Shown piece after piece: positions 2,652-52,930 of a DNA stretch of 64,000 nt; within the stretch, counting starts at the first letter, position 1, and the number at the start of each line of letters is the position of its first letter. A program made the translations under genes and the position numbers. The DNA is taken from contig WHTN01000004.1 in NCBI GenBank assembly GCA_009377715.1, positions 4,753-68,752 on the forward strand, read 5' to 3'. Source of the DNA: Dehalococcoidia bacterium (GTDB lineage: Bacteria > Chloroflexota > Dehalococcoidia > SM23-28-2 > WHTN01). The notes below the pieces were generated by a model that saw only the letters and a list, made by a program, of their open reading frames with translations, was not told the DNA's origin and made no database searches.

Positions 2652-3317
2652 CTACTGTTGCTCCCAGACGACGTTATCCGACGCGTGGACGATGAGAATA
2701 TCGCCGGAGCAGATTTCGCTTAGCGTATTTAGTTCTTGTGGGGCGCTAGGATCGTAGCTCCGCCAGCTTTGATCGCTTGCTTCATATTGCCACGCCACGT
2801 CTAGGACATCCAGGGTCGCGAACGCATCTTCGACCGGCTTACAGCCATCCGGGTGCCACTCGACGAAGTTCCACCCCTGCCAGAGGTCGACCGTATGCGT
2901 TTGCGGCGTCTCACAGGTCAGGTCCAGCCGGTGCTGCTTGGTGGGATCCCAAACTCCCGTCTGAGCGCAAGGGAGGAACACGGGTTCAGGGAACGGGTCT
3001 ACCCAATCGAAGGTAATCGTATCGCCGTAGCCAGCGCAGCCCCGCTCGACGGTAGTCGCCTTCACGTCTACGGTATAGCCAATGCCAAGCTCCTCGATGT
3101 CCTGGACTTCCGCCAGGCCGCAAATCTTATCGCGGATCTTCGCCCGCACCAGCGTTCCTACTTCAGGAGGCGCCCCTTCGACGGTGACGGTGCCATAGAA
3201 CGTGACGTAACTGAACGTAGGCTGAGCATCGACTTTAGAAGCGTCCGGAGAGACGGTTAGAACTACAAGAGCCACGATACCCGCAAGCGCCAGAATGAGA
3301 GCAACCGATTTCCTCAC
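2652..3317 (-). CDS. secreted/membrane-anchored hypothetical protein (domain A + domain B, paralogous to both ends of the upstream beta-helix protein)
   Basis: hydrophobic signal/anchor (VALILALAGIVALVVL); start moved to GTG ~3317 because the ORF-track start overlaps the upstream gene by ~210 nt; domain similarity seen by eye. Confidence 0.55.
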   Translation of the reverse strand: MRKSVALILALAGIVALVVLTVSPDASKVDAQPTFSYVTFYGTVTVEGAPPEVGTLVRAKIRDKICGLAEVQDIEELGIGYTVDVKATTVERGCAGYGDTITFDWVDPFPEPVFLPCAQTGVWDPTKQHRLDLTCETPQTHTVDLWQGWNFVEWHPDGCKPVEDAFATLDVLDVAWQYEASDQSWRSYDPSAPQELNTLSEICSGDILIVHASDNVVWEQQ

Positions 3318-3328
3318 GATGTTGACCT

Positions 3329-5232
3329 TTAGTCCTGGAGCCAAACGACGCCTTCCAACATATAGATGCTTAGGATGCCACAGACCTCTTGCAGCGTATT
3401 CACACTCGCGGGCGCGTTCGGATCGTAGCCAAGCCACGTTTGCGTCTCGCCGACGAACGCCCACGCAGTGCCCAGAATGCCCGCTTCTGTGAGTTGACGG
3501 AACGCCCAGTCCGCCGGACGGCAGCTTGAGGGCTGCCACTCAACTAAGTTCCAGTCGCCGAATAACGGCACCAGCGCAGCATCGCGCGCTCCAAATTCGT
3601 AAGCGCCGATATCGCAAATAACGCTGCCGCCGGTATTGTCATCGAAGGGTCTCGGGCGGCTGCGCTGATCTCTATCTGGGCATGCGCTGTTATCGCCAGC
3701 GTCTATGGCAGGGCTGCCGAACAGCAAGGCGTGCGTAAGCTTAGCACCACCGTCGTCGCCAAGCTCACTGAGCAAAGCATCATCCACAACGCGATCACCA
3801 CTGGCGTCAGCCAGACCGCAAGTGTCGTCGTCCGCGATACTGTGGTTGGTGGATATCGGCTCCGGGCCGCCGCAGTTGGTTTGAATGTTACGAGCGACGA
3901 TGGTGTTCGTCATCGTCGCGTCGCCGGAATTGTATATCCCGCCGCTACCGCCAGCCGCTAAGCTCGCATTGTCAGCAATCGTGACGTTAGTGAGGGTCAG
4001 CGTCCCGCTATTGCTTATGCCTGTGCCTTCGGTAGCCGACTGATTGCCGCTGATCGTGCTGTTCGTCAGGGTCGCGGTGCCCGTATTACTGAGGCCACCC
4101 CCTAAGTCTCCGTAGTTGTCGCTTATCGTACTCAGGGTGACGGTGAGTGCACCGTGGTTATCAATACCGCCTACGCCCAGATCGCTAATGTTTGTGCTTA
4201 TGGTACTTTCGGATATTTCGAGAGTGCCGGAGTTATGAATGCCTGCGGTACCGTCGACGCTGCTGTTTCCGCTTACGACACTCGTGTCAATAATAAGCGA
4301 GCCGTCATTGAGTATGCCGCTACCCTGAGCTGCAATATTTCGGCCGATCTCACTATCACGTACTAAGGCGGAGGCCCCGTTGTGCAAAGCGCCACCGGCG
4401 CTACTGCTATTTGCGTTGATAGTGATTCTTCTAACTGCAAGAGCACCTTCCAGATTATGAATGGCGCTACCAGCCTCGCTGTTGCCATTTCGGATAGTTA
4501 GATTCGCTGCGCTGAACTTGGTAGCGCCGACGACGTGGAACACCCTATCGAGGGCACCACCGTCTAGAGTACTTGTAGCCGTGCCGGATCCGACAATTGT
4601 AAGGTCGTCCGTGATATCTAAGTCACCCGTCTCGGCCTCATCTTCGGCTGCAGCGCCATTAGCGATGGTCAAAGAATAAGTGCCAGGCGGGACCGATATT
4701 GCGTCCAGGCCAGATACAAAGTTCGCTTCTTGGACGGCCGCCCGCAACGTGCATTCGCCCAGGAACGTTGCGCAGGCGTTATCACCTAACACCTCATCGC
4801 CAGCGTCGCGCTCGCTAGTGACGACAAACGTACGTAAGGCTTCGGAACAGACCAAGTCTAGTTCTTGAAAGCCCCCGTCCCAACTGCCGACGGTAGGCAG
4901 CCCAGAAACTCACCTTGAATGGTCTCCACCTCGAACAGGATTACCTTGCCCGTAGTGCCGCAATTTAACTCGTGACCTATCCAAAGTACATCTATGACAT
5001 ACCCTATGCCGATATCTTCAACCTCTCGAACGGTAGTCTGGCCACATAGATGGCCATCGATCCTGGCGCGGATTTCAGTGCCAATGGGAGGTATGGATCC
5101 ATCTACCAAAACCGTACCGGATATTCTGGTGGGTGGCCCTATTTGAGCTCGCGCGGAATCGTTGTCGGCGGAACTGACCGCTATCAAACTTGTGAGCAGA
5201 ACAGCCGCTGCTAAAAGTATTAGCTTTCTCAT
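3329..5232 (-). pseudogene. secreted CSLREA-type right-handed parallel beta-helix repeat protein, frame-disrupted (ORF-track pieces 4858..5232 and 3329..4855 are one gene)
   Basis: signal peptide MRKLILLAAAVLLTSLIAVSSA; domain A continues across the ORF boundary in the -1 frame (..WDGGFQELDLVC.. matches ..VWDPTKQHRLDLTC.. of the paralog); CTLRAAVQEAN (CSLREA-like) motif; many NxGxLTLTNSTISGN beta-helix repeats; shift around 4885-4900. Confidence 0.6.
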
Positions 5233-5244
5233 TGCTCTAGCCTC

Positions 5245-8819: not shown

Positions 8820-10664
8820 ATGAGTCGCATACCTCCTCCTCGCCGTCCCCGCCCCTCGCTTGCAAGGGGGGGAGCAGTCGAACGCCGCCACGAAAGTGGA
8901 GATCCGGTCCCTTTTATAATCGGCGGCGTAATAGTTTTTCTGGCTATCTTGATCTTAGTCCTGTTTCTGCCGCCGTTCTCACTACTCGGGGATGGCGGAG
9001 ACGACGATGGCGACCAGGTATCGACCTCTTCCGGTCTTACATTCAACACCAGCGAGCAACTGCCTGCGTTACCGGATAACCTTGTTGCCGTCAGCCCGCA
9101 CTTATCGGATATCAGGGTGCCCTCCAATCTAACTGATGGGCAGGTCCTCATCAGGATCCGGCTAACCCGTCCCGTCCAGGACGCTTCCAACATCGGCTTC
9201 TATACGTTCGAAGATAACCAGTGGAGCCGTATAGGCGGGGCGTCCCTATCCGAGGACAGACGTGAGGCGCTAGCAGAGTTCGACGAAGTCCCGTCAAACC
9301 TCGCCGTGTTGCAGCTTTCCGGCGCGGCTTTGCAAGTTACTGCCTGGCTGCCCCAGGGCGCAACAGTTAAACAAGAGGCGCAAAGCGTAATAAACGTATT
9401 AAACCCTCTTGGCCTCACTCCAAGAAGCGATGGCAGCGTCTCCGGCAACCTCGGCCAGTTACCCGCTGGATCTTTCCAAGTCCAGCCGGCCCTCCGAGCC
9501 ATCGATGGTGAGGCGGCAAGCGCCGTAACTGCAATACTATCGAATTCAGGGGCGACCCAGCAGCATATCGAGGCGATAGCGAATATCGCCCGACAAGGCG
9601 ACTATAGCGGCATCGATATCGATTACCGCTCTCTCGAAGTAGTGGAGAGACAACAGTTCACCGACTTCATAACGCGACTAGCGCAGCGACTCCACGACGA
9701 TGGCCGCTCCCTAAGCGTGACGCTGCCGCTGCCACAACGGCAAGGCGATATGTGGCGGACCGGCGCCTACGACTGGCCAGCGATAGGCCAAGCCGCGGAT
9801 GTCGTCAAAATCGTGTCCGAACAAGACCAGTCGATCTACAGATCGGTCATGACGGATGTTCTGACCTTCGCTACGGGCGAAGTCCCTGCGAGCAAACTGT
9901 TCCTGATACTGAGCCCCTTCAGCCACGAACGCACCCCCAACGGGATACGTTCGCTTTCGTTCGTCGAAGCTCTCGGCACGGCAACCGTAATGAGCGTAAG
10001 AAGCCCGATGGGCCCGATAAGCACCGGCACGCGCGTTACCGTAACCGGCGATAACATCTATCGCCCAGACGGTGCAACTGGCATCCGTTGGGACGAGGAC
10101 GCCTCTATAGTAAGCTTCTCTTTCCGCTCAAATAACGAGGAGCACACCATCTGGGTCGAGAACTCGTTCAGCATCGCGTTTAAACTCGATCTAGTCCGCT
10201 CCTTCGGGCTGGGCGGGGTAGCGATCGAAGATGCTTCCGACAGTGCAGGAGGCGCCGATATATGGTCGACCGTGGCTAATTCGGTAGCGGGCAGTCTAAC
10301 TCTCGCCAGGCCACACCCGGACAACCTGAGGGCAACGTGGGAAGCCGAACAGGGCGCTATAGAGGCAGGGACCAGCGGGCAAGCAGCAACATGGACTGCC
10401 CCGGACCGTGCCGGAACATATCAGGTCGCCCTTATCGTCGGCGACGGCGTTGCCAGGGTCGGGCGAAGGCTCGATCTTCAGGTGGGCGGTGGCGCGAGCA
10501 CGCCCGCTCCCACAACGGCCGCTACGCCCGTATCGACCGTAGCACCGACTACAATCGCGACGGCTACTCCCGTGCCCACCGCCGAGCTAACGATCGAACC
10601 TACAGCGACGCCTGAACCGACGCCAGAGCCTACCCCTTCACCAACGCCAACCCCTACACCGTAA
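8820..10664 (+). CDS. membrane-anchored GH18-like (chitinase-fold) domain protein with Ig-like segment and Pro/Thr-rich C-terminal tail
   Basis: TM helix IIGGVIVFLAILILVLFL; GH18-like ..YSGIDIDYRSLE.. with Arg where the DxxDxDxE catalytic Glu sits; GLGGV motif; PT-rich tail at ~10490-10661. Confidence 0.7.
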   Translation: MSRIPPPRRPRPSLARGGAVERRHESGDPVPFIIGGVIVFLAILILVLFLPPFSLLGDGGDDDGDQVSTSSGLTFNTSEQLPALPDNLVAVSPHLSDIRVPSNLTDGQVLIRIRLTRPVQDASNIGFYTFEDNQWSRIGGASLSEDRREALAEFDEVPSNLAVLQLSGAALQVTAWLPQGATVKQEAQSVINVLNPLGLTPRSDGSVSGNLGQLPAGSFQVQPALRAIDGEAASAVTAILSNSGATQQHIEAIANIARQGDYSGIDIDYRSLEVVERQQFTDFITRLAQRLHDDGRSLSVTLPLPQRQGDMWRTGAYDWPAIGQAADVVKIVSEQDQSIYRSVMTDVLTFATGEVPASKLFLILSPFSHERTPNGIRSLSFVEALGTATVMSVRSPMGPISTGTRVTVTGDNIYRPDGATGIRWDEDASIVSFSFRSNNEEHTIWVENSFSIAFKLDLVRSFGLGGVAIEDASDSAGGADIWSTVANSVAGSLTLARPHPDNLRATWEAEQGAIEAGTSGQAATWTAPDRAGTYQVALIVGDGVARVGRRLDLQVGGGASTPAPTTAATPVSTVAPTTIATATPVPTAELTIEPTATPEPTPEPTPSPTPTPTP

Positions 10665-12254: not shown

Positions 12255-13200
12255 TCAATTTAAGAAGTTTATAGCTCTTTGAGCTAGACACCCCTCATCG
12301 CATCCACATGTCGAAGTTCTGCGTTGCTCTAAGCGACACTGGCCTAAAAACGGCGATAACTCTAGTACTTCTCCCAGAGACTTACGAAACACGTTATCGT
12401 AATCAGACTCAGAAGGCCTCGGCTCAACGTTGTGACAAGGACTAATCCAACCGTCCCATCGCACCACAAGCTCTTTAGCGATCGCCACGCATTTGTTCGG
12501 CTCACGATAGCGAGCAAGTGTCGCCTCTCCAAGTCGAACGCGAACATGAGCTTTATCACCGATCATATCGATATGCTCTCTGAGTAGCTCGAAAGGCACA
12601 AAAAAGGCTGTCTCCCTTGGTAGCTGCTCTGCCTTGCGGCACACTCGTCAATATGCGTAGTTCATGAATTCCCAATTCATCGCAAAGAGTTGCTGCTTGG
12701 AGTAGATCAGTCAAGTTGCCGGGGTATGCGAAGAAGGTACACGTAACATTGATTCCAGCCTTGACCATATTTTTAACTGCGAGACATGTCGCTTCAAAAC
12801 TCCCTTGTATCCGAGTTAATGCATCGTGACGAGCAGCCAGCCCAGAATGAAGAGATACACGGCACAGATCGACCCAATTCTTCATCTCAAGCGCTCTTGA
12901 GGAGTCAATCGGAACCAGCCGATATGACGAGTCGAAAAGGACACCCATTGAGAACAATATGGTATTTAACCCGCAGACCTTTGAGCACTCTAGAATTGAG
13001 TGTAGTGATTCATGAAGCAACGGTTCGCCACCTGTAACGATTAGGCTTTGCCCACCTTGGTCTTTAAATTCCTTAATGAGTTTGCAGGCAACGGTATGAT
13101 CCATTTTCTGAGTTCTGCGTAACCCGGCTGATACAGAGCAGTGCCCGCACGCTAATGGACACTGCTGCGTAATCTCCAACCGTAAAGTATCAATTGTGTA
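12255..13200 (-). pseudogene. radical SAM / SPASM-domain enzyme, frame-disrupted (ORF-track pieces 12556..13257 and 12255..12644)
   Basis: CPLACGHC (CxxxCxxC) and TGGEPLL in N-terminal piece; Cys-rich twitch/SPASM-like C-terminus (WDGWISPCHNVEP...CGCDEGC) in another frame; shift within ~12600-12645 next to an A6 run at ~12600-12605; start trimmed to the internal Met. Confidence 0.7.
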
Positions 13201-13777
13201 CATCTGCGGTACTCGATAATAATTGGCGTATGGCAGTGATTGCTTCAAGCCTTGCATCTGTCGAAACTACGACCAATTCGCCAACTTGAAGATCGCACTC
13301 GCGTGCTACCAACCGCTGCAGTCTTGCGAGTCCCACGAAATTGCTATATGCCTTACTGTGGTAATGTTGACTGCGGTACGTTGCTGTCATTATGAGTTCA
13401 CCATCGCGCTGGTGAAATTGAATCGATGAGAGACATGGAAACCCTCTGTTCGCCGCAGCTGAAGTTGATGGCCTACCGAAAAGAATTGGCCGTGGATCGA
13501 CTCCACTTCGGCGCAACGAACGAATGATTCTTACAATTTGATTGACCTTGCCACTCCCGTCATAGTCAACCATTCGCACAAAATAATTGCGGCTATCCAT
13601 TTTCCTTATAAGGCGCTGCGCAGCCTTTTCCCAATTGCTTGCCTCGATCACGGAAATCGGCATTATAGTACGGGCTACGGCACGCATACTGTGTGAGGCG
13701 TCTAGCGATAAAGCCCGATCTATAAGGACACCGCGCTCATCCTCAAAAGACGAAGGTCTTTCTATGCTTACTACCAA
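13190..13777 (-). CDS. thymidylate-synthase-fold protein, 3' portion of a gene interrupted by the IS1595-family insertion
   Basis: alignable by eye to ThyA core: ..GFPCLSSIQFHQRDGELIMTATYRSQHY..SNF..ARECDLQVGELVVVSTD.. vs E. coli ..[46 protein letters not shown]..; begins at TTG 4 nt from the IS left end. Confidence 0.6.
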   Translation of the reverse strand: MVVSIERPSSFEDERGVLIDRALSLDASHSMRAVARTIMPISVIEASNWEKAAQRLIRKMDSRNYFVRMVDYDGSGKVNQIVRIIRSLRRSGVDPRPILFGRPSTSAAANRGFPCLSSIQFHQRDGELIMTATYRSQHYHSKAYSNFVGLARLQRLVARECDLQVGELVVVSTDARLEAITAIRQLLSSTADVHN

Positions 13778-13854
13778 ATTAGGGTAATAATCTAGTTGAC
13801 TCAGTAGAAAAGTCGCTCTATGATTGCTTTAATCTTATTAGCCTGTGGGAGATT

Positions 13855-14610
13855 ATGCAGTCATTTAGCGGTTTTGATTTGTTCGGTTTGGGGCAATTCA
13901 TCACCGCGCTAACGGAAGGGGAAGGGCAGCGCATAATCCCAGAAGACACGCGCCATCAGATGGAGCAGGCTGCGCGGCAGGCCCGGCGGACATGCATTCT
14001 TTGTGGTTTTCCCGCAACGGCTGCTGGACTCGCAAGACTAATTGCCGACCTGCAAGCTCCAATAACTGAGGAGCAGGTCACGATAGGAGGGAGGTATTGC
14101 TTCCAGGCTCTAACGGATGAAGCAGGCGCTAGATTATTTCTTTACATGGGCGAGAGTCGTAGGTATTACTATGAGTCCCCATCAGAAGGATGGAACGATG
14201 TGTTAGAGAAGTTTCCGTCAGCGCGGCTCGACATAGAGGAAGCCAGCAAATGTTACGCATTAGCCCGGTATACAGCTTCTGTGTTCCATTCGATGCGGAT
14301 ACTAGAGCCAGCGTTGAATGCGCTTGCTGGCGAGTTTGCTGTGTCTACGGATAGGGCAAACTGGCATAACATCCTAGATCAGGTCGTTGCCGCTATTGAA
14401 CAAAAGAGTAAGGCGCAAGGGGCTGGGTGGACAGACCAACAGTTCTATTCGGAGGCGGCTGTAGACCTACGTTTCTTCAAGGACGCGTGGCGCAATCACG
14501 TAATGCACGTACGAAAGACCTTTGATGAAGAAAGAGCGTTAGGTATTTACCAGCGGGTCCGCGACTTAATGAGGCACTTATCTACCAAACTAAGCGAGCC
14601 ACCCCTATGA
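13855..14610 (+). CDS. passenger gene of the IS: hypothetical protein with a possible HEPN-like R-x4-H motif (WRNHVMH)
   Basis: 251-aa ORF between IR-L and transposase; the single R-N-x3-H motif near the C-terminus is the only HEPN evidence. Confidence 0.5.
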   Translation: MQSFSGFDLFGLGQFITALTEGEGQRIIPEDTRHQMEQAARQARRTCILCGFPATAAGLARLIADLQAPITEEQVTIGGRYCFQALTDEAGARLFLYMGESRRYYYESPSEGWNDVLEKFPSARLDIEEASKCYALARYTASVFHSMRILEPALNALAGEFAVSTDRANWHNILDQVVAAIEQKSKAQGAGWTDQQFYSEAAVDLRFFKDAWRNHVMHVRKTFDEERALGIYQRVRDLMRHLSTKLSEPPL

Positions 14611-14759
14611 CTTGTCCCGCACCTCATCCTTCGGCTCTCGTATTGCTTCCTTCGGCACGCGGACTATCTTGCGCGTCAACCGCTCAAATCGTTCCCATGC
14701 CGTCTCCGGCGTGCCCTTCGGTTTCTTGGGGTCATTTGCCATGTTTCCCCCTTCCCTGT

Positions 14760-15719
14760 CTACGTTGGCGTCGTAGCGTCTCCTATAAGCTCTGCGTAGG
14801 TCAATCGCTTGCCTGTAATCCTCTTAGCGAGCCGCAGGAAGCGCTCGCCGTCGGTTGCCCTTCGACTGTTGAATCGAAAGGCTTCTTCATCAAGATAACG
14901 GAAAAGGTGGAACGGCTCTACGCTTACATAGGTGCCTTTGATAGCACGTTTCAAGAGGCTCCAGAAATTCTCAATGCCGTTGACGTGAATCCTGCCTTCG
15001 ACGTACTTCTCCGCGTGGTCAATAACACCATGAATATAATCCATCTTCAAGTCATCATAAGAGCGAAACGCGTCTGTAAAGACCTCAGCGCCTTCCTTAG
15101 CCTGACTGCGGACTTGCCCGCTCAGGGCATGGCGGCGACGATTCGCTACGATGGTAGTCCTGACGGTGCTGTGTCCGTCTGGCCCGTGACGCTCCAAAAG
15201 GCCCATGACTGCAACTTTGCCAGTGGCCCAGGTACCAGTAATCTTCTCCGCTCGCTTGTCCTTGTGCATGAAGCGGGCCTTGCCACCGATAAAGGTTTCA
15301 TCGACTTCGATGATGCCGTCCATCTTAGTGTAGTCATCGGACTGCATAGCGAGCCGTATGCGATGGAGCATAAACCAAGCGGTTGTTTGAGTCACGCCGA
15401 GAGCACGGGCCAATTCATAGGAGCTAATACCGTTCTTGTCGTTGGCAATAAGCCACAAGGAAGGAAGCCACCTGTCCAGACCGATAGGGCTGTCCTCAAA
15501 GATAGTCCCTACCTTGACCGAGAACTGCCGTTTGGCGTGCTTGTCCTTGCACTCCCACAGTTGGCGAGTAGAGATGTAACGCGCATCGGTTCGGCCACAA
15601 TTAGGGCACGCGATAACGCCATCGGGCCATCGCATCGCGAGCATAAACTTTTGACAAGTCTCAGGGTCAGAAAAGAACTTAATCGCTTCGAGAAGGGTTG
15701 CGGGCTGGCTGTTATTCAT
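14760..15719 (-). CDS. IS1595-family transposase (ISXO2-like, N-terminal zinc ribbon + DDE domain)
   Basis: 319-aa ORF; ..MRWPDGVIACPNCG.. zinc-ribbon and ISXO2-like DDE region. Confidence 0.9.
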   Translation of the reverse strand: MNNSQPATLLEAIKFFSDPETCQKFMLAMRWPDGVIACPNCGRTDARYISTRQLWECKDKHAKRQFSVKVGTIFEDSPIGLDRWLPSLWLIANDKNGISSYELARALGVTQTTAWFMLHRIRLAMQSDDYTKMDGIIEVDETFIGGKARFMHKDKRAEKITGTWATGKVAVMGLLERHGPDGHSTVRTTIVANRRRHALSGQVRSQAKEGAEVFTDAFRSYDDLKMDYIHGVIDHAEKYVEGRIHVNGIENFWSLLKRAIKGTYVSVEPFHLFRYLDEEAFRFNSRRATDGERFLRLAKRITGKRLTYAELIGDATTPT

Positions 15720-15784
15720 GGCTTTTACTCCTTACAGCCACATTATAACCCAGATAGCTTACTGAGTCAACTAGGTTATTACCC

Positions 15785-15945
15785 AAATTAGATACTCGAT
15801 GATCCTTGGTTTCGAGAAGACAGCTTATAGCTGTTTGCCACGCAGGCCATATATCTGTTTCCGGAATATACAAAGACTGTTCATGGTACAACCTCTTTAT
15901 CTGGTATAGCTTTGAAGGCGAGGCTATCTTGAAGGGCTGATTCAT
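15785..15945 (-). other. displaced 5' fragment of the ThyA-fold gene (in frame with 13777 once the IS and one AAATTA copy are removed)
   Basis: ORF 15712..15945 runs from ATG into IR-R; its frame is continuous with the TTG at 13777 across the insertion point; reconstructed product ~248 aa (ThyA is 264 aa). Confidence 0.45.
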
Positions 15946-16933
15946 CCATTCTTAGTCGTTTGGCCATCGACTGTGAAAGCACTCTGTAATAATTCAGTGG
16001 TGTCGTCTCCCCTTTGGGTGGCGTCATTTTTTTTAGGACTCTAACTGTTGAGTCATTAACTATACCCAGAGCACGCAGCCGGGCGAGTGCTGCTGCGTGG
16101 CTAATTCCATAAGAAGTTTCCATTTCAGCCAGGCTATCCAATATGAAACCTGATGCTAGATATGCTTGAATAGTTTGTCGGGGCAATAGAAGGGCTGAAG
16201 CGAAGACATCTGCTCGATATTCCATGTGCGAACGTGGGCCAGGGCGTTCCCAGCCCGCATCACAAACCGTTGTCCGTAATTCACGATCCATCAGGTAATG
16301 AGCTAATTCATGGGCAAGTGTAAAGCGCTGACGGGAACGCGGCTGGTTATAGTTGACGATTATTGAGGCAAACCTCTTCTCGTCTACGACCATACACCCT
16401 GCAACCCTGGACTTACTCGGAAAACGGGCCCCGAAGACGGCTAGGCCTAGGCGGGTTAAAAGGCCTGAAAAACCGCTTATTGGTTCATTTGGTGGGATAC
16501 CCAAATGTTTACGAATCCTGCGCGCTAGCAACTCACCGGCTTCTGTATCTGCACGAAGTGCTAAATTACGGGTTACATTCGGCGTCTCGCAGGAATCGGA
16601 GACTTGCGAAAGAGAATCATGCAAGGTAAGAAACCAAGATAAGACAGCTTGATCCTCGGGGCTAACAGGTCCAGACCGAAACCGGAAAAGATTGCTACGA
16701 CTGGCCTTTACCGATACAGTTGGTCGGGGCTTAAGTAACTCTACGACAGGACAATTTAATAGTTTGGAAATTACTGAAAGCTCGGAGGCAGTAACGCTAC
16801 GCGATCCTTGCTCAATTCGACTTATCGCAGATCTATCGACACCAAGCAACTCGGCGAGTTGTGCCTGGCTCAGGCTTTGACGATAGCGTGCTTCTTGGAT
16901 ATTGTATCCAATATCCTTATCCGAAACTCTCAT
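15881..16933 (-). CDS. fused XRE-family HTH + ImmA/IrrE-family zinc metallopeptidase (COG2856-like) regulator
   Basis: HTH ..LSQAQLAELLGVDRSAISRIEQG..; HEXXH as FTLAHELAHYLMD; start placed at internal Met (MRVSDKD) because upstream is AT-rich promoter-like DNA abutting the leuS stop. Confidence 0.8.
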   Translation of the reverse strand: MRVSDKDIGYNIQEARYRQSLSQAQLAELLGVDRSAISRIEQGSRSVTASELSVISKLLNCPVVELLKPRPTVSVKASRSNLFRFRSGPVSPEDQAVLSWFLTLHDSLSQVSDSCETPNVTRNLALRADTEAGELLARRIRKHLGIPPNEPISGFSGLLTRLGLAVFGARFPSKSRVAGCMVVDEKRFASIIVNYNQPRSRQRFTLAHELAHYLMDRELRTTVCDAGWERPGPRSHMEYRADVFASALLLPRQTIQAYLASGFILDSLAEMETSYGISHAAALARLRALGIVNDSTVRVLKKMTPPKGETTPLNYYRVLSQSMAKRLRMDESALQDSLAFKAIPDKEVVP

Positions 16934-16940
16934 TTCGGAT

Positions 16941-16970
16941 ATTATAGGCCGGTTATGATCATGGATGCAA
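16941..16970 (-). promoter_or_regulatory. candidate sigma70-type promoter for the XRE-ImmA gene (leaderless transcript)
   Basis: minus strand TTGCAT (16970-16965), 18-nt spacer, TATAAT (16946-16941), ATG 7 nt downstream. Confidence 0.35.
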
Positions 16971-17010
16971 TATTTATTTAAGAGTTTATGTGCGCATTCC
17001 ACACAGGAAA

Positions 17011-20081: not shown

Positions 20082-20158
20082 GGCCCCGTGGTGTAGTGGC
20101 CTAACATATCTCCCTGTCACGGAGAAGATCGTGGGTTCGAATCCCATCGGGGTCGCCA
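20082..20158 (+). tRNA. tRNA-Asp (anticodon GTC)
   Basis: cloverleaf folded by hand: acceptor GGCCCCG/CGGGGTC, U8, D stem GTGT/ACAT, anticodon stem TCTCC/GGAGA with loop CTGTCAC, T stem GTGGG/CCCAT with TTCGAAT loop, G73, encoded CCA; followed by T-run. Confidence 0.85.
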
Positions 20159-20280
20159 CTCTTTTTGTATTTAGATATTCCAAAGAAGCTACTCTAAGTT
20201 TGACGGACCAAGCGATGGCCAGGTCGGGCCAAAGTCTGAGCTTGATGGTTCGTCGGTCCTTCCGATTAAACCACCACGGC

Positions 20281-20913
20281 AGGCCGAGCCTATAAGCGAT
20301 ATCGCCGTGATCGGCGCCGGCTACGTGGGACTGGCGACAGCCGTGATGATGAGCGCCTGGGGGCACAGAGTACAGTGCTTCGATAGGGATCAGGCGAAAG
20401 TGAACCTACTCGACGCCGGCTTCTGCCCGATCGTTGAGCCTCGACTGCCTGATTTTGCTACGCGATCAGCTCGATACGGGGCGCTTGACTTTTAGCTCTA
20501 GAATCGACGTGAGCAACGCCCAGGTGGTCTTCGTATGCGTCGGTACACCCCCAAACGATGAGGGTGGTGCACACCTCGCTGACCTATTCGAAGCGGTTGA
20601 AGCGATCGGCAAGACGATGCAGCCCGGCCTGACTGTCGTTGTAAAAAGCACGGTCCCCGCTGGGACGTGCGATCGCGTGGAGGGGCTGCTGGCGCAGTAC
20701 GCTACGCCGGACTCATTCTCCGTCCTCTCGAATCCAGAGTCCCTGCGTCAGGGCAGCATCATCGACGACACCGAGCAGCCCGACCGCATCGTGATCGGTG
20801 CGCGGGACCGAGAGGATGCGGAAGTGTTGGCGCGCATATACGAGCCTGCTCGATCGGATCGGCGCGAGCTGCGGCGATCCTTCAACCATCCCTATTCGTA
20901 TCTAGGTCTGTAG
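20281..20913 (+). pseudogene. UDP-glucose/GDP-mannose 6-dehydrogenase family, N-terminal NAD-binding fragment only, frameshifted and truncated
   Basis: ..DIAVIGAGYVGLATAVMMSAWGHRVQCFDRDQAKVNLLD.. Rossmann region with no ATG; split into two overlapping ORFs; central and C-terminal domains absent. Confidence 0.7.
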
Positions 20914-21042
20914 TCACTCGCGGTTTTGTTTGTCCGCTTTAACTTCCTCAATAAACATGCCCGGTTCTCTTGCTTTCTAACGGCCAGCCGTTAGTATCAA
21001 TAATAAGAGTGATCTCAATCAAAGCTTAGCAGGAGTAGAGGG

Positions 21043-21258
21043 ATGTGTCGCAGTATTAAGAGACTACGCAATAGCAGTGGACGGGCGAATGAGGAAGAGA
21101 TCGAAGCCGCAGCCCTCCAATTCGTGCGGAAGGTGAGCGGCTACTCAAAGCCATCGAAAGCCAACGAGGAAGCCTTCAATCTCGCCGTGAACAAGATCGC
21201 GGCGGAATCGCGGCAGCTCCTGGACTCGCTGGAGACGCGTACGGCGCCTCACGAGTGA
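21043..21258 (+). CDS. small conserved hypothetical protein (DUF2277-like)
   Basis: 71-aa ORF MCRSIKRLRN...AALQFVRKVSGYSKPSKANEEAFN..; family assignment from memory. Confidence 0.45.
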   Translation: MCRSIKRLRNSSGRANEEEIEAAALQFVRKVSGYSKPSKANEEAFNLAVNKIAAESRQLLDSLETRTAPHE

Positions 21259-21321
21259 TTATTGATAACCAAAAAAGCTAAGCGCGATGACTAGGAACGT
21301 GCGCGTTCGGAAAGCACCATG

Positions 21322-21666
21322 TCATTTCCTGGTATGGTCGCCTTCCCTCATGATCGTATCTGCATGCTGCCCGCAAAATGACACGATAGTGCCGTCATCC
21401 ATCTCGATTACGATATCTTGTGAGTAAGGCCGACTACATACCACACGCCGAGCGGAAACGATCCGCTTGCTAATGATGCTCTCGACCAGACGCGAGGTCT
21501 CGGTGTCAGCTTTCCATCGTTCCGCTGTAGTAGGCGTGTGGGAACCGGATTCGCCCACGTTACGGTTGCAAACGGTACAAAACACCCGGTTGCTTGGCCC
21601 TTTCCACTCTTTGCGTACTGGCTGCTCTTTGCCACAATGGGCACAAAACCAGATTTCTCCAGCCAT
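21322..21666 (-). CDS. hypothetical zinc-ribbon protein
   Basis: CAHCG...CTVCN motifs; competes with overlapping ORF 21408..21731. Confidence 0.35.
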   Translation of the reverse strand: MAGEIWFCAHCGKEQPVRKEWKGPSNRVFCTVCNRNVGESGSHTPTTAERWKADTETSRLVESIISKRIVSARRVVCSRPYSQDIVIEMDDGTIVSFCGQHADTIMREGDHTRK

Positions 21667-22298: not shown

Positions 22299-22342
22299 CC
22301 TCTACTCCTCCCGAGCTTCTAAACGGCTTTGCATCTCCAATG

Positions 22343-25045: not shown

Positions 25046-25700
25046 TTATGCCTCTTGCTGTGTCAAAGCGACCAACTGCTCGAACTGTTCGTGATTGGGG
25101 CCGACAAACGGCTCGGCGGCGGGGACAGAAGCAAGCACCTTCAAAAACTGCTCCGTGACACCTCTCGCTGGAGGCAAATGCGAAGAAAGGATGATCTTGG
25201 GATCGATCTGCCTTACACGCTCCAGCCCTACCGCAAACTTGGCCTCATCGGTTAAGGGGCCCAAGGCGAATCGGAAGTCGCCCAGCCGAGCATGCCACCA
25301 GCCAGCGCAGCTTCGGGGATTTCCGTCGCATCTTCCGCTGGCTCGCGCAATAAAGCGCCGAAGGCATCTGCAGAAAACAACGCGCCGGATTTCTCATCGT
25401 AAAGGGCCGCAGTTAGCAGGTTATCGAAGAGGGGTGGCCTGAGCGCCGAAAGTTTGCGGTCTCCTACATCGACCGTATCCCCAGGATTAATGGCGTACAC
25501 CCTATCCATCGGCAAAGGCCACCACGTCGCCATTCTTAAGGCGCAGAAGGCATTCGTAATGAGTCGGGCCTGCGGAGCGATCTCCATAACCGCCTGGATG
25601 TTCCCCGTGTGGTCAGCATCGTCATGAATCCCTCATGGGGGATCTCCAAATAGCCAGGGATGACCGTGATTTCATCAGTTGCCTTGAAAGGCTTTTCCAT
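25046..25700 (-). pseudogene. MBL-fold metallo-hydrolase (possibly flavodiiron-type, H-x-D-x-D-H motif), split into three frames
   Basis: MEKPFKATDEITVIPGYLEIP.. then FHDDADHTGN in another frame after a C5 run; further shift at ~25252-25264 (GGGGCCC). Confidence 0.5.
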
Positions 25701-29081: not shown

Positions 29082-29883
29082 CTACTGAATGCGACTCCGC
29101 AAAGAGAGAAACGCCAGTGTGATTGTAACCACGCCCAAAGCTGCAACCGTGAGAAACGTTATCCCAATATCAGCAGCGTCCCAACCAGTCAGCGAGAGCG
29201 CCCGCATGCCTTCCAATATGTAAGTCATCGGGTTGAACGTAGCAGCAGTCTCCAACCAGCCCGAGAGAGCTTCCTTCGGCGCGAACATCGTGGTGGTGAA
29301 GATCAGTGGCATAAAGAGGAACCACATGCTCTGCGTCGCCTGAGCATTACCCGTCTTGAGAGCGATAGCGAAGCCGATCCCGGAATAGGCCAGTCCGAAC
29401 AGGCTGCTCATAAACACTAACACCACAGCACCTGGCAAGCCAGTCTCAAAGTGAAGCCCTGTTGCGACGGCGACGAGCAGAACGATGACCGCTTGGATCG
29501 TGATGCGAATGAAGTCAGCGCCCATGGCGCCGATCAGTATAGAAATGCGATTGGCCGGCGTGAGCAACAGTTTATCGAAGTAGCCGCTTTCGATGTCGGC
29601 GACCATGTTCAGGCCAGCCCTGTACCGCAAACAGGATCCCAACCGGTAGCTGAAAAGCCTTCCAATTCGTGATACCGAAAGTATCGGCGAACGCGTCCAA
29701 CGACCCTACCATGATGAAGTAGAAGAATATCGGGACAAGCATGTTAGGAATCAGGTAGGCCGGCGTCCGCCATGCTAAGCGAGCCTCCCTAGCCGCTAAA
29801 AGTAGTGTGGCGCGGACCCCCTGCTGCCAGGAAGACCAAGGCGTAAGCCTAGAAGCTTGGGGAAAAGAAAGTTCCGTCATCAT
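29082..29883 (-). pseudogene. ABC-2-type transporter permease, frameshifted (pieces 29572..29883 and 29082..29642)
   Basis: N-terminal piece ends ..VGILFAVQ then continues ..AGLNMVADIESGYFDKLLLTP.. in another frame; shift at ~29605-29625 (GGG run). Confidence 0.7.
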
Positions 29884-38037: not shown

Positions 38038-38110
38038 TGCGTCAAATTTTAGCAGTCGCAAGCCAAGCCGCTGGAATTCGCTTACCCGGTCCGGACTACA
38101 ACCAGCTTGT

Positions 38111-39181
38111 CTACGCCAGACTCTGCTCCCCACACCTCGCCCGGGCGACCCAGGATCTGGCGCACGTTAGCCGGCGAACTTGGCAGGGTAAAGACCTGGA
38201 AGGCCTCCTGCACCGGATCGAAGCGCACCATAGCGTTCGCCCGAAATCGCTCAGCCAGACGATATCTTCATCGTCGACGTAGACCGCGTACGCCTGCGGG
38301 CGATCGCCGGGCAACCGCCACTCGCTCCAAGAGTTCGTAGCGGGATCGTACATGCCAAGCTGTCCCGCGTTCCACTCGCTTACCCAGACGCGACCCTGCG
38401 AGTCCGGCCATACCCGGGCGCGCTCCTTGACCGGCAGTCGGCGGTTCGATGACCGCGGCATCTCCAGTTTCCAAATCGATGCGAGTGATGTGACTGCCAG
38501 CCAGCGAGGCGTAATACACGTCGCCAGCTGGCGTAGTGCTGATCCCGTACGGCCCGCGGCCACGCGGGGCGTCGAAGACCTCGATCTCTCCAGTTTCGGG
38601 ATCGAGGCGGCCGTAGATGCCGTTCTGCCCCGTGAACCAGAGGATGCCCCGATTATCGAAGGTAGCTGTGTTCAGATTGGCCGAGCCTACCGGCAAAGGG
38701 TACACCACCTGCACTTCCTCCATCGCCGGGTCAACCCTTACGATAGAGTTCAGGCCGCCATCCGTGATCCAGGGCGCACCATCCGGCCCAATGATGACGC
38801 CGTGCGGGCCGAGCCACTACCTAGATCGATATGATGCGTCTGGCCGGTGGCTGGATCGAGGCGGCCGAGCTCGCCACTACCCTGCGCCGTGTACCAAACG
38901 CTTCCGTCCGGCGCGGGCGCTACGTCGTGCGGACGCGAGCCGGCCGGCACCGCGTACTCTTGGATCTGAGGCTCGATCACCTCGGGACGTGGTGTCGCAA
39001 CCGGTGAAACGGACGTTGTGGGGGTAGCAGTGGACGATGGCGTCACTACAGGCTCGCTCGGCGACGGTCCGCCGGACGCTGTCTGATCGCCGTCGCCTCC
39101 ACAAGCGCTAACTATGATGGCTACGGATATCAGCCACGCGAAGGCAGCGAAGAATCCTACCAGCCGTTTGCGTACAATCAT
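38111..39181 (-). pseudogene. Vgb-like (streptogramin-lyase-type) beta-propeller lipoprotein, broken into at least 3 frames
   Basis: lipobox ..VSACGG..; PT-rich linker; repeats ..GSVWYTAQGSGELGRLDPATGQ.. / ..GILWFTGQNGIYGRLDPETGE.. / ..GRVWVSEWNAGQLGMYDPATN.. in three different frames. Confidence 0.6.
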
Positions 39182-39329
39182 ACCTTTGCTCTATCAAATT
39201 ATACGGCCCGCTCTGGCCAAGCGATGCATGGATCGAAAGCCAAAGCGCCTCCCTGTCCTCGCCAAATACCCAATCTGGTAAAGTCGTGATATTGTAGCAT
39301 TGCTCACACACCTATCAGGGGGACGTTGA

Positions 39330-44845: not shown

Positions 44846-45175
44846 TTACATTTCCACGAAGCCTTTATCCATGTGGCCGGGCTGAATCTTAAGGTGCAAC
44901 TCCGACCTTAGAGCCATTGCGTGCATGGTTGTGACCCCTTTATTAGCGTGATCTGCACTCTCCCACTCCGACACACGACATACATATCCGGAGCTATCTG
45001 AGGCCTTGAGCGCGTGAGCGCTTAAGCAACCTTCCAAGCTTTTGGCGTAGTCCATAAGCTCTTTATTTATTTTTTCTACTTCCGCTTCCTGACCGGATAT
45101 TGGGACCATCATAGAGATCGCTACATAAGCCATGTCGTCCTCCGCTGAAGGTTTAAAGCGCGTTAATTCTATCAT
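44846..45175 (-). CDS. ABM-like small protein, putative
   Basis: ..VSEWESADHANKG.. pattern; start at internal MIELTRF assumed. Confidence 0.35.
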   Translation of the reverse strand: MIELTRFKPSAEDDMAYVAISMMVPISGQEAEVEKINKELMDYAKSLEGCLSAHALKASDSSGYVCRVSEWESADHANKGVTTMHAMALRSELHLKIQPGHMDKGFVEM

Positions 45176-45269
45176 ATGTATGGTGCTTCTCAGATGCTTG
45201 ACATTACTATCTAGGAAAGCTTTAAATAAACGCAAATTACGATCGGCTTACAGAATTGAGGGTTACGAC

Positions 45270-46544
45270 ATGCTGGACGTCAACAACCTCGTGGATGGCA
45301 ATCAGGGACTGGTCAACCGCCGTATTTACGTCGACAGGGAGATATACGAGCAAGAGCTAGAGCAGATTTTTGCGCGCGTATGGTGTTTTCTAGGCCACGA
45401 ACCGCAGATCCCCAACCCGGGCGACTTCGTCGCATCGTACATAGGCGAAGACCCTGTCCTCTTGGTACGCGACTCGCGAGGCAAGATCGGCGCTTTCCTG
45501 AACACCTGCCGCCATCGTGGAATGCGCGTGTGCCGTGCGGACGCCGGCAACGCGGCCGCCTTCACCTGTACGTACCACGGTTGGACTTACGGCAACGATG
45601 GAAAGCTGGTAGGCGTGCCGGGGTACAAGGAGTACTACTACGAAGAACTCGATATGGAGCAGTGGGGGCTGGTGCCGGTGGCGCAGGTGGACTCCTATCA
45701 GGGTATGATCTTGGGCACCTTCGATCCTTCGGCTCCGCCGTTGCTCGAATACTTAGGCGACATAGCCTGGTATCTCGACTTTCTAATCCACCGTCGCGAA
45801 GAAGGTATCGAGGTTGTGGGAGGCGTGTCCAAATGGATCATGCCCTGTAACTGGAAGTTCGCCGCAGACAACTTCATCGGCGACAACTATCACATACCGG
45901 TGACCCACATATCGGCGACGAAGCTCGGCTTCTCCGGCACGTTACGCCGTCGGGCGTTTCAGGTCAATCCAATGGACGGCCACGGCATCATCAGCAGGCT
46001 GATCGACGCGGAGGAACCGGGTTCTTTTATGAGCACCTTATTTCCGGAAATGGCCGCTTACCAGGAAGAAGTCCAGGTGGCCATGGAGAAGCACCTAGGC
46101 GACCGTGCGAAGCAGATCATTCCTATAGTCGGCACGGTCTTCCCGAACCTGTCCTTCGAAGCGTTCACGTTCCGCGTGTGGCACCGCGCGGCCCGGACAA
46201 GACCGAAGTATGGGTCGTGGTGCTACATCGATAAGGCCGCACCGCCAGAGATAAAGAAACAGATGCACCTCTTCCACCAGCGCCGCTTCGGCCCGGCGGG
46301 TACCTTCGAGCAAGACGACGGCGAGAACTGGAATATGACGACGGCTTCGAGCATGGGGCGGGTGAGCAGGCGCTACGAGTTCAATTATCAACTGGCCCTC
46401 GGTCACGAGGGTACGCACGAAGACTTCCCGGGCGTCGTCGCCGATGGGCCGAGCGAGCATAGCGCTCGGGGCTTTTACCGGCGCTGGGCATCTCTGATGA
46501 AAGCAGAAAACTGGACGGAGAGAATTAACGCTCTGCAGCAGTAG
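45270..46544 (+). CDS. Rieske [2Fe-2S] aromatic-ring-hydroxylating oxygenase, alpha subunit
   Basis: Rieske CRHRG...CTYHGW; mononuclear Fe ..DNYHIPVTH..; start at MLDVNNLV with GAGGG RBS. Confidence 0.85.
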   Translation: MLDVNNLVDGNQGLVNRRIYVDREIYEQELEQIFARVWCFLGHEPQIPNPGDFVASYIGEDPVLLVRDSRGKIGAFLNTCRHRGMRVCRADAGNAAAFTCTYHGWTYGNDGKLVGVPGYKEYYYEELDMEQWGLVPVAQVDSYQGMILGTFDPSAPPLLEYLGDIAWYLDFLIHRREEGIEVVGGVSKWIMPCNWKFAADNFIGDNYHIPVTHISATKLGFSGTLRRRAFQVNPMDGHGIISRLIDAEEPGSFMSTLFPEMAAYQEEVQVAMEKHLGDRAKQIIPIVGTVFPNLSFEAFTFRVWHRAARTRPKYGSWCYIDKAAPPEIKKQMHLFHQRRFGPAGTFEQDDGENWNMTTASSMGRVSRRYEFNYQLALGHEGTHEDFPGVVADGPSEHSARGFYRRWASLMKAENWTERINALQQ

Positions 46545-47702: not shown

Positions 47703-48877
47703 TTACCCGGCCTCTTTGACAGGCACTGGAGCAGGACCCGCCTCGAACTGCGCCGTCTCCGACTCTGGCTCTTTCACATAGAGCCAGAAAACGACGACTG
47801 AGGCTAAGGCTATGATTCCGGCCACCGGCCCCAGGTAAGTGTAACCGCCCCATGAGTCCACTATCTGCCCGCCCACGACCGAACCGGTGACGAAGCCAAA
47901 CTGCAAGCTTGAGGTGAACAGGGCCATAACGGAGCCTCGCAGACGCGGGATCATCTCCGTCATCATCGTTTGCGCGCTCATATGGTGGGCGCTGTTTGGG
48001 GCAGCCAAGAAGAACAGCGCAACCAGAGCCGCGAGCCTCCAGTCGATAATAGTGGTAAACGCTATCATGATCGCGGCGTCGATTAAACGGCCGACGATGA
48101 CTATCTGGCGCCTACCGCGACGGTCGCCCAACCGCCCGCCGACGTTCGTGCCGATCAGCGAGCCTACGCTCATGACCATGTTAGGTATTGCCAGCAGCGC
48201 GACCGGCAGGCCGAAAACGTCGTGGAAATAAGCGCCCAAAAAGGTAATGAGGATAGCCCAATGAGCGACATTGAGATAGTTAGCCAGCAGCCCCAGGCAG
48301 TCGGCCGGTGCCGCACGACGGCCAAAAGCGTGTCGATATACCCTTCTGATGCGCCGTCTTTACTCTCTTTCCGCTCCTCTATAGGCAGCTTTTTCAAAAT
48401 GATTATCACGGAGATAATGCTCACAACTGCAAGGAAGGCGAAATTTATCCGCCAGGATACGAAATCAGCGAGGACAGCGCTGATCGGGAGGGCCACAATT
48501 GGAGCCGTTGTGTTGGCGGTGAACACCCACGCCATCGCCTTACCACGCTCGTTATAGGGGAAGTAGTCGGCTACGGCTGCGAAGACAGCCGACATAAGCC
48601 CAGCTGCGCCAACACCTTGGAGTGCTCTGGACGCCACGAGGACCCAGAATGTAGGAGCAACCGCTGACATCGCGCTGGCAAAAGCGAAGATAACGAGACA
48701 GACGAGGATAACAGGCCGGCGGCCGATACGATCTATGGTTGGCCCAACAAGAAGTGAGCCGATGGCAGCTACCAATGCGTAGACCGAAGCCAGCAGACCG
48801 CTGGTGCCCCTACTGACGCCGAAATCATCGGAGATCTCAGATAGTATTGGGATTACGACCAGATTACTGAAGAGCAC
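47703..48877 (-). pseudogene. MFS transporter, frameshifted (pieces 48170..48877 and 47703..48239)
   Basis: N-terminal 6 TM and C-terminal 6 TM in different frames, overlapping 48170-48239. Confidence 0.65.
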
Positions 48878-49041
48878 TACGAACGAAGCCGTACAAAGGA
48901 CGGCTAGGATGAAATAACGGTTGGTAGGCGAGACGTTCGTACTCGCAGAATCTGCAGAGCCAAAAATCAGGCACGCACTTTATAACAATGATGGTTAAGT
49001 GTACATGATCTATTGTACGAAAGGATACTCTGAAACTGAAC

Positions 49042-51219: not shown

Positions 51220-51378
51220 ACGATCGCCTCCTTGGCTCTCCTACAATCGTGTTCCTGGGTCCCGCACAACGTCAAGAAGCCTTTCACCTACATCATTCCG
51301 TGCCCGGGCCGAGTCGTAAGAGCAAATTACTCATTCCCTTAATTATAGATTACGAATGGCCCTGAAGGAGCGGGGTAA

Positions 51379-52155
51379 CTATTTGATCAGGTGGTGGCGC
51401 ATACCGACAGGGCTAGATAGAAGAAGATCGGCAGAGACAACGATGATCCAAAGCAGATGTCCGAGGTCGCTCCATTGCGGCGAGCCTTCCACACGACCTC
51501 TATACACGACGACTACGTGGGTAGCCGGAACGAACCATGACACCACCTCCATCGCGGCAGGCAGCCGCTCGATGGGAAAGAATGTCCCGCCGCCCAGCCA
51601 GAACATCGGCGTTATGTAAATGGCGAAGAAGTAATTGAGCGAGCTCACCGACTTTGCGATGGACGTGTAGGCGAGTCCGGTCGACGCAAGCATGATCCCT
51701 GGCAAGAAGCCTAACGGTATGATCAGGATAGCTAGCGGCGATGAAATAGCTCCGAACGCCGCCGCCACAATAAGTATATAAACGCTCGATATAACGGCGC
51801 GCGTCGCGCCCCAGCACCTTCCCAGCGATCACGTCCTCTATCCCAACCGGCGTAGTGATGATAGCGTTGTACGTGCGCTGGCTCTCCGTACGGAAGTATG
51901 CTCCCCAGGTGCATTCGCCTACGGCCGCCCACATCGGATAGATCGTAAGAAGGCTATAAACTCGATGTAACGCTGATCGCTGCCAAGATCGATCAGACCG
52001 CCAAGCCCCACACCCAGCGCTAGCAACGAAACGACCGGCTCGACGAGCGGCCAAACGGCCTCCGACCGCCACAGGCGCAGATAGACGTCGCAGTTGCGTT
52101 GCCACACCCTAAAACTACGAAACGATAGGCCGTTCGTTATCGTTGCTATGCTCAT
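51379..52155 (-). pseudogene. ABC-2-type transporter permease, fragmented over at least 3 frames
   Basis: N-terminus ..VWQRNCDVYLRLWRSEAVWPLVEPVV.. and C-terminal TM pieces in different frames. Confidence 0.6.
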
Positions 52156-52167
52156 ACGTCTGTCCGT

Positions 52168-52930
52168 CTATTCGATTAAGCCGCGGCCGGTCAGCCGAAG
52201 GAATACGTCTTCGAGGTTAGCGGGACGGTAAACTACCTTCGTCCCTTCGGGTATGGCCTCTGAAAGGTCGAAGCGGTCGGTGGAGTCGTTTTGAAAATGC
52301 GTAGATAATGTCCTCGGCCGCTTCCCTCGTACTTCTTCCGTTATGTGAAGCTCCATCGCCGCTTTACCAACATACCGTTCTACAAGCTCGTCAGGCTCGC
52401 CTTCGGCGAGGATCTTCCCCTGGTTGATTATCACAAGCCGGTCGCATAAGTGCGCGGCTTCCTCCATATTGTGCGTACTTAGAAGCATGGTGACGCCCTG
52501 CGCTTTAAGATGCCGCATCTTCTGCCACAGCAGGTGCTTGGCCTGCGGGTCCAGTCCCGTGGTCGGCGAGTTGCATAAACTCGATCGCTTCGCTGGCTGC
52601 AGCAACCGCTTTAGCCTTCGGAATGCCGAAGTAACGAGCGTATACCAATAAATTCTGACGGACGGTCAGGTCGGGGTCCAGGCTATCGTCCTGAGGCACG
52701 ACGCCGAGGATAGACTTTATTCGCCGCGATTCGCGGCTTACGTCCATGCCGGCTACTCGCAATTCGCCTCCGCTGAGCGGAGATACGCACGAGATCATGC
52801 GCATCGTTGTACTCTTACCAGCGCCGTTCGAGCCAAGCAAACCGAAGCATTCGCCAGCGGCCACTTCAAACGAGATGCCATCGACCGCTGCTAGATCATC
52901 GTAGTGTTTGACGATGTTGCGGGCACTTAT
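52168..52930 (-). pseudogene. ABC transporter ATP-binding protein, at least 2 frameshifts
   Basis: ..ISARNIVKHYDD.. , GSNGAGKSTT, and ..SPTTGLDPQ..LLSTHNMEEA.. lie in three frames. Confidence 0.65.

Follow-up and report, generated by a model that had tools for sequence, protein, structure and literature searches.

Frame-disrupted accessory genes, probably true pseudogenes, in a 64-kb window of an environmental Dehalococcoidia genome

Nine disrupted loci

The DNA examined here is a 64-kb window of contig WHTN01000004.1 (positions 4,753 to 68,752 of the forward strand; assembly GCA_009377715.1) from a Dehalococcoidia bacterium, and it was analysed together with 5 kb of flanking sequence. The window holds ~58 protein genes, has a GC content of ~56%, and its longest homopolymer is 8 nt. 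Nine of the genes (15.5%) are disabled, by 15 lesions in total: eleven insertions or deletions (indels) of a single nucleotide, three deletions (2 to ~139 nt) and one truncation. The genes affected encode two ABC-2 permeases, an ABC ATPase, an MFS transporter, two secreted proteins or lipoproteins, a UDP-glucose dehydrogenase (ugd), an MBL-fold hydrolase and a radical-SAM protein. A tenth gene, encoding a Rieske oxygenase, is damaged in the window allele only.

The source study describes a metagenome of Centrosaurus fossil bone and mudstone, sequenced as 2x150 reads on an Illumina HiSeq 2500, from which metagenome-assembled genomes (MAGs) were built via MEGAHIT co-assembly of three samples followed by SPAdes re-assembly of the bins (PMC8067395). 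Judged by GC content (56.96%) and taxonomy, the window most likely belongs to the MAG Dino_bin38 (WHTN00000000), which contains 2623 coding sequences in 2.35 Mb, a density that is slightly high and compatible with split genes without being diagnostic of them. The metaproteome tables of the study list only isolated Dino_bin38 proteins, none of which is assignable to the nine loci.

At all nine loci, stop-free segments lie in different frames of the same strand and abut or overlap. A scan of codon-usage log-odds, trained on 20 long intact genes, detected frame switches at eight of the nine (4900; 20436; 25615 and 25285; 29616; 38813, 38440 and 38240; ~48300; 51947 and 51800; ~52558) and none in the other genes; the radical-SAM locus was not scorable because it lies in a low-GC island. 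The fragments match consecutive parts of single Pfam profiles, and conceptual repair of the frame gave contiguous profile matches for the two ABC-2 permeases, the MFS transporter and the radical-SAM gene with its SPASM domain. Two marks of a bacterial pseudogene are present: the reading frame is disrupted, by 15 lesions in nine genes, and homology to full-length proteins extends to both sides of the lesions at every locus. An initial annotation of the window had listed nine disrupted loci, and each was recovered at or near the position given for it by the frames, the Pfam matches, the scan (8/9) and the repaired matches. In-frame nonsense codons were sought in the nine window pseudogenes and none was present.

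The lesions were mapped with a purpose-written frameshift-aware protein-versus-DNA aligner, an affine-gap version of which resolved the deletion in the ATPase gene. Close homologues map five of the 11 single-nucleotide sites (three in the Vgb-like gene, 25258 in the MBL gene and ~48293 in the MFS gene); the remaining six were placed by means of the frames. The initial annotation had also noted that several of the shifts coincide with short runs of G/C or A, and a test of this association bore it out: eight of the 11 indels fall within homopolymer runs of 3-6 nt, mostly of G or C, and three lie outside any run of at least 3 nt. By chance, 19-31% of positions in coding sequence would lie at or near a run of at least 3 nt, and P is accordingly between 1.5e-4 and 5.5e-3. 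Several genes carry more than one lesion (three in the Vgb-like gene, four in the nodIJ-like operon, two each in the MBL gene and ugd).

The gene for a secreted beta-helix (CSLREA-like) protein (3329..5232, minus strand) was delimited from its frames and by alignment with a paralogue. It carries one -1 shift at ~4884-4900 (~4888; CTACC/GTCGG), which leaves the signal peptide and N-domain in frame 0 (4861-5232) and the beta-helix and C-domain in frame 1 (3332-4909). An intact downstream paralogue (2652-3344) aligns across the shift, with FLPCAQTGVWD..LDLTC matching FLGCLPS/GSWD..LDLVC. The radical-SAM/SPASM gene (12255..13257, minus strand), identified from Pfam matches in separate frames and from repaired profiles, has its Radical_SAM and SPASM domains in different frames owing to a +1 shift, most likely a T5 run of the coding strand that has become T6 (plus-strand A6, 12600-12605). 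Once repaired, it gives single contiguous matches to NCBIfam radical-SAM/SPASM models, for example PqqE (25-312) and NirJ2 (29-308).

Only the NAD-binding domain remains of ugd (20280..20846, plus strand). After repair, its residues 4-189 correspond to 11-197 of the enzyme in PDB 4a7p, which is 446 aa long, and Pfam recognises the N-domain alone (positions 55-186). The locus had been called disrupted at ~20460, which holds for the gene; the lesion itself is a 2- or 5-nt deletion at 20436-20448, inside an EPGLD motif that now reads EP-LD across frames, together with the loss of the 3' ~250 codons (~55%), nothing being left beyond residue ~197 of ~446. At the expected ATG start (20292-20294) the sequence reads ATA.

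The MBL-fold hydrolase of the ODP family (25049..25700, minus strand) was aligned in a frameshift-aware manner with homologues of 264-290 aa and 63-65% identity. What had been taken for a shift at ~25610 is a ~139-nt out-of-frame deletion (junction 25616-25634) that takes out homologue residues ~26-71 (~46 residues); the second lesion, expected at ~25260, is a -1 shift at 25258 (GGGCCCC/TTA, C5 to C4). In the DrrB-like ABC-2 permease gene (29082..29883, minus strand), analysed through its frames and the repaired Pfam match, a base has been added within a G run at 29612-29625 (CAGG[G]CT). The repaired product covers positions 3-208 of the 211 in ABC2_membrane, and its match to the drrB family is weak, the 61.5 bits falling short of the 223-bit cut-off. 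The partner gene for a DrrA-like ABC ATPase (29880-30920) is intact, which suggests a very recent inactivation of the transporter.

The Vgb-lyase-like beta-propeller lipoprotein gene (38085..39190, minus strand) was previously credited with two shifts (~38300 and ~38600). Alignment with its homologues P0004, P0008 and P0001, to which it is 77% identical over 300 aa, resolved three: -1 at 38807 (C4 to C3), +1 at 38416 (CCC/GGG) and -1 at 38240 (G4 to G3), with no further damage. The MFS transporter gene (47703..48940, minus strand), examined by alignment and against Pfam, has a sole lesion, -1 at ~48293 (CTGGGG/C, G5 to G4), and is otherwise full length: it is 48% identical to the 405-aa protein P0363 over residues 2-395 with one shift, and when repaired matches MFS_1 over positions 1-305 of 347.

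The last two loci adjoin each other. The NodJ-like ABC-2 permease gene (51379..52155, minus strand) passes from frame 0 to 1 and back to 0 through a -1 shift at ~51944-51957 and a +1 shift in a G run at ~51802-51817 (CTGGG[G]CGCG). Repair raises its ABC2_membrane score from 23.5 bits for a fragment to 43.8 bits (positions 6-207 of 211); the best NCBIfam model is nodJ, at 96.6 bits against a cut-off of 206.65. In the NodI-like ABC ATPase gene (52168..52955, minus strand), which was aligned with an intact in-window paralogue, the change read earlier as a shift at ~52590 is a ~105-nt deletion (junction 52551-52576): the LSGG signature and Walker B are lost, the frame changes and ~36 residues are absent relative to the paralogue. 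ABC_tran accordingly covers only positions 2-96 of 137, and the NodI profile matches in two stretches. The further lesion reported at ~52900 is plausible, as a weakly supported -1 shift just after the start codon (52931-52941, ~52935).

Comparison with a second assembly

The only data set found to match the window is run SRR10173838 (Illumina HiSeq metagenome), and an independent Logan k-mer assembly of this run served as a second assembly, standing in for a read-level comparison. Matching sequence on seven Logan contigs amounts to 46.5 kb and takes in seven of the nine loci and 11 of the 15 lesions; the NodJ-like permease and NodI-like ATPase genes (loci 8 and 9, 51.4-53.0 kb) lie outside the comparison. 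Over these 46.5 kb the assemblies differ by eight single-nucleotide polymorphisms (SNPs) and three indels, and at the 11 covered lesions they do not differ at all. Logan is identical at the beta-helix (contig L002) and MFS (L006) sites, 100% identical at the DrrB-like (L004) and Vgb-like (L005) loci, and gap-free at the radical-SAM site (L003) and at the ugd and MBL loci (both L007). The comparison of assemblies that the initial annotation had proposed returned the same sequence at 7/9 loci and 11/15 lesions. Of the SNPs in intact genes, five of six are synonymous, so the differences between the assemblies look like real strain variation rather than noise.

The damage to the tenth gene, which the initial annotation did not list, is one such difference. 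In the gene for the alpha subunit of a Rieske ring-hydroxylating oxygenase (45132..46544, plus strand), the window and Logan alleles were each compared with PDB 8k0a. The window allele has a -1 shift at 46184 and a +1 shift at 46212, which together scramble nine conserved residues (46178-46217), turning the conserved WHPRGPDKTEVW into WHRAARTRPKYG, and it also carries F194L (45713). The Logan allele, in which the segment is conserved, scores 220.8 bits against 8k0a and the window allele 190.3 bits. These observations suggest that indels of this kind, with loss of function, continue to arise or to segregate in the population and that decay is ongoing; they also suggest that the 11 lesions common to both assemblies are older than the divergence of the two variants.

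The mapped indels at 38800-38815, 38408-38423, 38233-38248 and 46178-46191 have a CCCG/CGGG-type context in common, which could be chance, the sites being few and the genome GC-rich. Elsewhere, four SNPs fall within 36 nt of the SerRS gene (873-908; three synonymous, one A/E), a patch suggestive of a short tract of recombination or of a strain variant. A further indel at 15881 (CTGT-TCATGG in the window, CTGTCTCATGG in Logan L003) is not at a homopolymer and lies just outside the stop codon of a helix-turn-helix (HTH)/M78 gene.

Distribution of the lesions and their surroundings

The lesions are unevenly distributed. Under random placement, 15 lesions would be expected in ~12.8 genes, and the probability of finding them in nine or fewer is 0.006. 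The core genes, which add up to 13.8 kb, are free of lesions (P=0.015), as is each of the five genes that exceed 2 kb. The housekeeping genes, including those for SerRS, a LysRS-type aminoacyl-tRNA synthetase, LeuRS, GreA, HtrA, Ku, LigD and a penicillin-binding protein, show no frame switch, as the initial annotation had held for several of them; its further statement that disruption favours accessory genes agrees with the avoidance of core genes and with the transporters, secreted proteins and island genes that are hit. Some of the affected functions have counterparts nearby, the window containing three MFS genes, two ABC-2 systems and a paralogue of the beta-helix gene.

In typical prokaryotes, pseudogenes account for 1-5% of gene-like sequences, and ABC and MFS transporters are the top pseudogene families (Liu et al. 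2004, PMC522871). The local density of 15.5% is 3-15 times this baseline, and even with a background of 5% the probability of at least nine in 58 genes is 0.002.

A further disrupted gene lies in the flank. The MauE-family gene at 8890-9324 of Logan contig L002, ~3.8 kb beyond base 1 of the window, has an in-frame TAG at 9175-9177; reading through it raises the Pfam score from 37.7 to 67.6 bits and extends the profile match from positions 3-85 to 3-125 of 128. This gene is a nonsense-type pseudogene.

The frameshifted radical-SAM gene is held in a low-GC (~50%) island at 12255-17002, between CoaD/RsmD and LeuRS, which stay linked in distant relatives. The island also contains a ThyA-like open reading frame (ORF; 13190-13777), a 251-aa ORF of unknown function, an IS1595 transposase (14760-15719) and an HTH and peptidase-M78 (ImmA/IrrE-like) regulator (15881-17002), and may be a mobile or defence-type cassette. 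The ThyA-like ORF was considered as a truncated pseudogene and was left uncounted; its best model is a 201-position archaeal-type thymidylate synthase, and it may be full length. Identity of the 251-aa ORF with a metaproteome protein of the same length was ruled out, as their masses differ (28.28 and 28.44 kDa).

Directly upstream of the ugd remnant, ARAGORN and Rfam place a tRNA-Asp(GTC) (20082..20158, plus strand), whose neighbourhood is a possible rearrangement hot spot. An att-like repeat of this tRNA, sought as a sign that island integration had truncated ugd, was not found. The adjoining 20900-24200 contains only short ORFs that have no family match and score poorly for codon usage; they may be older gene remnants beyond recognition, and a search of the short ORFs of 20.9-24.2 kb for gene remnants found none that was recognisable. 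Between genes, at 23526-23574, there is a perfect 24+24-nt inverted repeat, a hairpin whose loop is a single nucleotide.

Relatives of the window are distant. Apart from an NCBI protein that is 100% identical, the best LeuRS hit is 76% identical and is listed as 'Dehalococcoidia bacterium'. A metagenome scan with LeuRS returned relatives of at most 64%, with synteny limited to RsmD and CoaD; a scan of genome contigs with the GDE-like hydrolase returned only relatives of 39-57% from other phyla, without synteny; and the genomic context of a 78% homologue of the Vgb-like protein is unrelated to the window.

Origin and significance of the lesions

The best explanation for these observations, to which a probability of about 0.85 is assigned, is that the nine accessory genes have truly become pseudogenes in the genome of an environmental member of the Dehalococcoidia. 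The lesions are present in the DNA: the data are Illumina reads, and the Logan assembly is identical at 7/9 loci. Several lines of evidence point to real lesions, namely that Illumina chemistry is combined with very short affected runs; that the second assembly is the same at 11 lesions; that four of the 15 lesions are not single-nucleotide changes and occur in the same gene set; that the lesions cluster within genes and avoid core genes; that the flanking MauE gene has a nonsense codon; and that the inter-assembly SNPs in intact genes are mostly synonymous. The initial annotation had offered two explanations, the shedding of accessory functions and systematic homopolymer indels of the assembly. 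The reproduction of the lesions at 7/9 loci, the multi-nucleotide deletions, the truncation, the clustering and the nonsense codon in the flank support the first, and the second is at odds with the 2x150 Illumina reads, the absence of any run longer than 8 nt and the 3-6 nt of the affected runs.

Several points weigh against real pseudogenes. The lesion evidence is at the level of assemblies; both assemblies derive from one read set, so that a systematic error in the reads could in principle have entered both, and the support of the second one covers seven of the nine loci. The bin is among the least abundant (relative abundance 0.2-2.7), and its coverage may be modest. An indel-heavy spectrum with no nonsense codon in the nine genes is also what an artefact would be expected to give, and the Vgb-like gene is otherwise perfectly conserved despite its three shifts. 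The relatives found are distant (76% for the best LeuRS; 64% among loci with flanking DNA) and did not show intact orthologues in synteny, and the density refers to the 64-kb window.

The alternative that survives best accepts the lesions and holds that they are polymorphic, the contig being a strain consensus and intact alleles persisting, so that standing variation would have been sampled in place of fixed decay. The Rieske gene, intact in Logan and double-shifted with F194L in the window, behaves in this way; the inter-assembly SNPs behave as real strain variation, and the MAG was co-assembled from three samples. Against this, both assemblies agree at all 11 comparable lesions, so the shifted alleles form the majority path, if not more, in either graph, and several lesions in one gene imply that such genes have been dead for some time. 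Polymorphism of this kind is considered unlikely, while keeping appreciable weight.

Far less probable is that the single-base frameshifts are artefacts of assembly or sequencing, that is, systematic homopolymer indels in genes that are intact in the cells. The position of 8/11 indels in short runs, the well-conserved coding sequence flanking each shift and the lack of nonsense codons would fit such an artefact, as would the low abundance of the bin and the three other indel sites at which the window and Logan disagree, which point to some indel uncertainty. However, the Illumina HiSeq platform is not prone to homopolymer error, the affected runs are merely 3-6 nt long in a window that reaches 8 nt, and a different assembler returned the same sequence at seven loci. 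Intact coding sequence has many runs of at least 3 nt, yet no frame switch was seen in intact genes. The lesions are also more varied than homopolymer indels would be: four of the 15 are larger, with deletions of 105-139 nt or a truncation in the same gene set; of the 11 single-nucleotide indels, three lie outside runs; and the flank has a TAG. Nor are they scattered regardless of function, since nine genes are hit and the core is spared. Single-nucleotide shifts at short runs are also the normal signature of replication slippage.

Functional shifts, whether at phase-variable contingency loci or through programmed ribosomal or transcriptional frameshifting of genes that are still expressed, are scarcely credible: the shifts do lie at mononucleotide runs in surface and transport proteins, the usual targets of phase variation, but contingency loci typically have tracts of roughly 7-8 nt or more and those here have 3-6 nt, the Vgb-like and NodJ-like genes carry at least two independent single-nucleotide shifts, the MBL and ATPase genes add larger deletions, three loci are without essential segments, the shifts are spread through the genes and not restricted to 5' ends, +1 and -1 both occur with no common slippery motif beyond G/C runs, and the homologues of the Vgb, MBL and MFS proteins are encoded in one frame.

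Inactivation proceeded mainly by gain or loss of one nucleotide at homopolymer runs of 3-6 nt; deletions, few in number and of 2 to ~140 nt, and a single truncation account for the rest, and genes already dead then gathered further lesions. The single-base indels are probably products of replication slippage, with larger deletions following. They may have persisted through relaxed purifying selection, some of the functions being redundant, and/or through strong drift in a small, low-abundance population, with the housekeeping genes presumably remaining under selection. An indel-biased mutation regime is possible, as the haplotypes differ by an indel:SNP ratio of 3 to 8 and the nine genes lack nonsense codons. 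The mechanism is not new and is standard bacterial pseudogenisation; it is the high local density in a lineage that is not host-associated that is mildly unusual.

The lesions resemble those of Mycobacterium leprae, Sodalis glossinidius, Serratia symbiotica, Salmonella Typhi and Shigella, in which genes have been killed by small indels, deletions and truncations. Several lesions per dead gene, the sparing of housekeeping genes and the over-representation of transporter and surface families are common to the window and those decaying genomes (PMC522871; see also PMC3091646 and PMC3056288). Unlike those organisms, the present one is environmental (rock, fossil bone) with no known host association, and its decay was followed over 64 kb, where no expansion of insertion sequences is evident (one IS1595 copy) and the nine genes have no nonsense codon. 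With the homopolymer artefacts of 454, Ion Torrent and Nanopore sequencing the window shares single-nucleotide changes at mononucleotide runs that split otherwise conserved ORFs; it differs from them in its Illumina origin, its very short runs, the agreement of a second assembler, the larger deletions mixed in and the confinement of the lesions to accessory genes. The kinds of lesion and the families affected are also those of the background in free-living prokaryotes, and the radical-SAM gene in a horizontally acquired low-GC island fits 'failed HGT' (horizontal gene transfer; PMC522871), whereas the local density of 15.5% exceeds the 1-5% of that background. Mutators deficient in mismatch repair (MMR) are similarly dominated by ±1-nt indels at short runs and bear comparison with the haplotype indel:SNP ratio of 3 to 8, a likeness that rests on small numbers, with no MMR gene in the window, and is a lead only.

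A wider reading is possible but decidedly tentative. According to this, a free-living endolithic member of the Dehalococcoidia (order SM23-28-2) would be in early, active genome decay, with at least 10% recent pseudogenes genome-wide, driven by indel-biased slippage (possibly with mismatch repair weakened or missing) and by drift in a very small, isolated population, alleles of the Rieske type still segregating between strains.

For the window itself, the nine genes call for annotation as pseudogenes and not for metabolic inference, for example of transport capacity or UDP-glucuronate synthesis, and the frameshifts are not to be 'polished away'. A pseudogene density of ~15% is normally tied to recent host restriction. 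Were it to hold genome-wide, this organism would show genome reduction under way in nature without symbiosis, and would help in studying how far slippage indels and deletions each contribute to the mutation spectra of subsurface bacteria that have not been cultivated.

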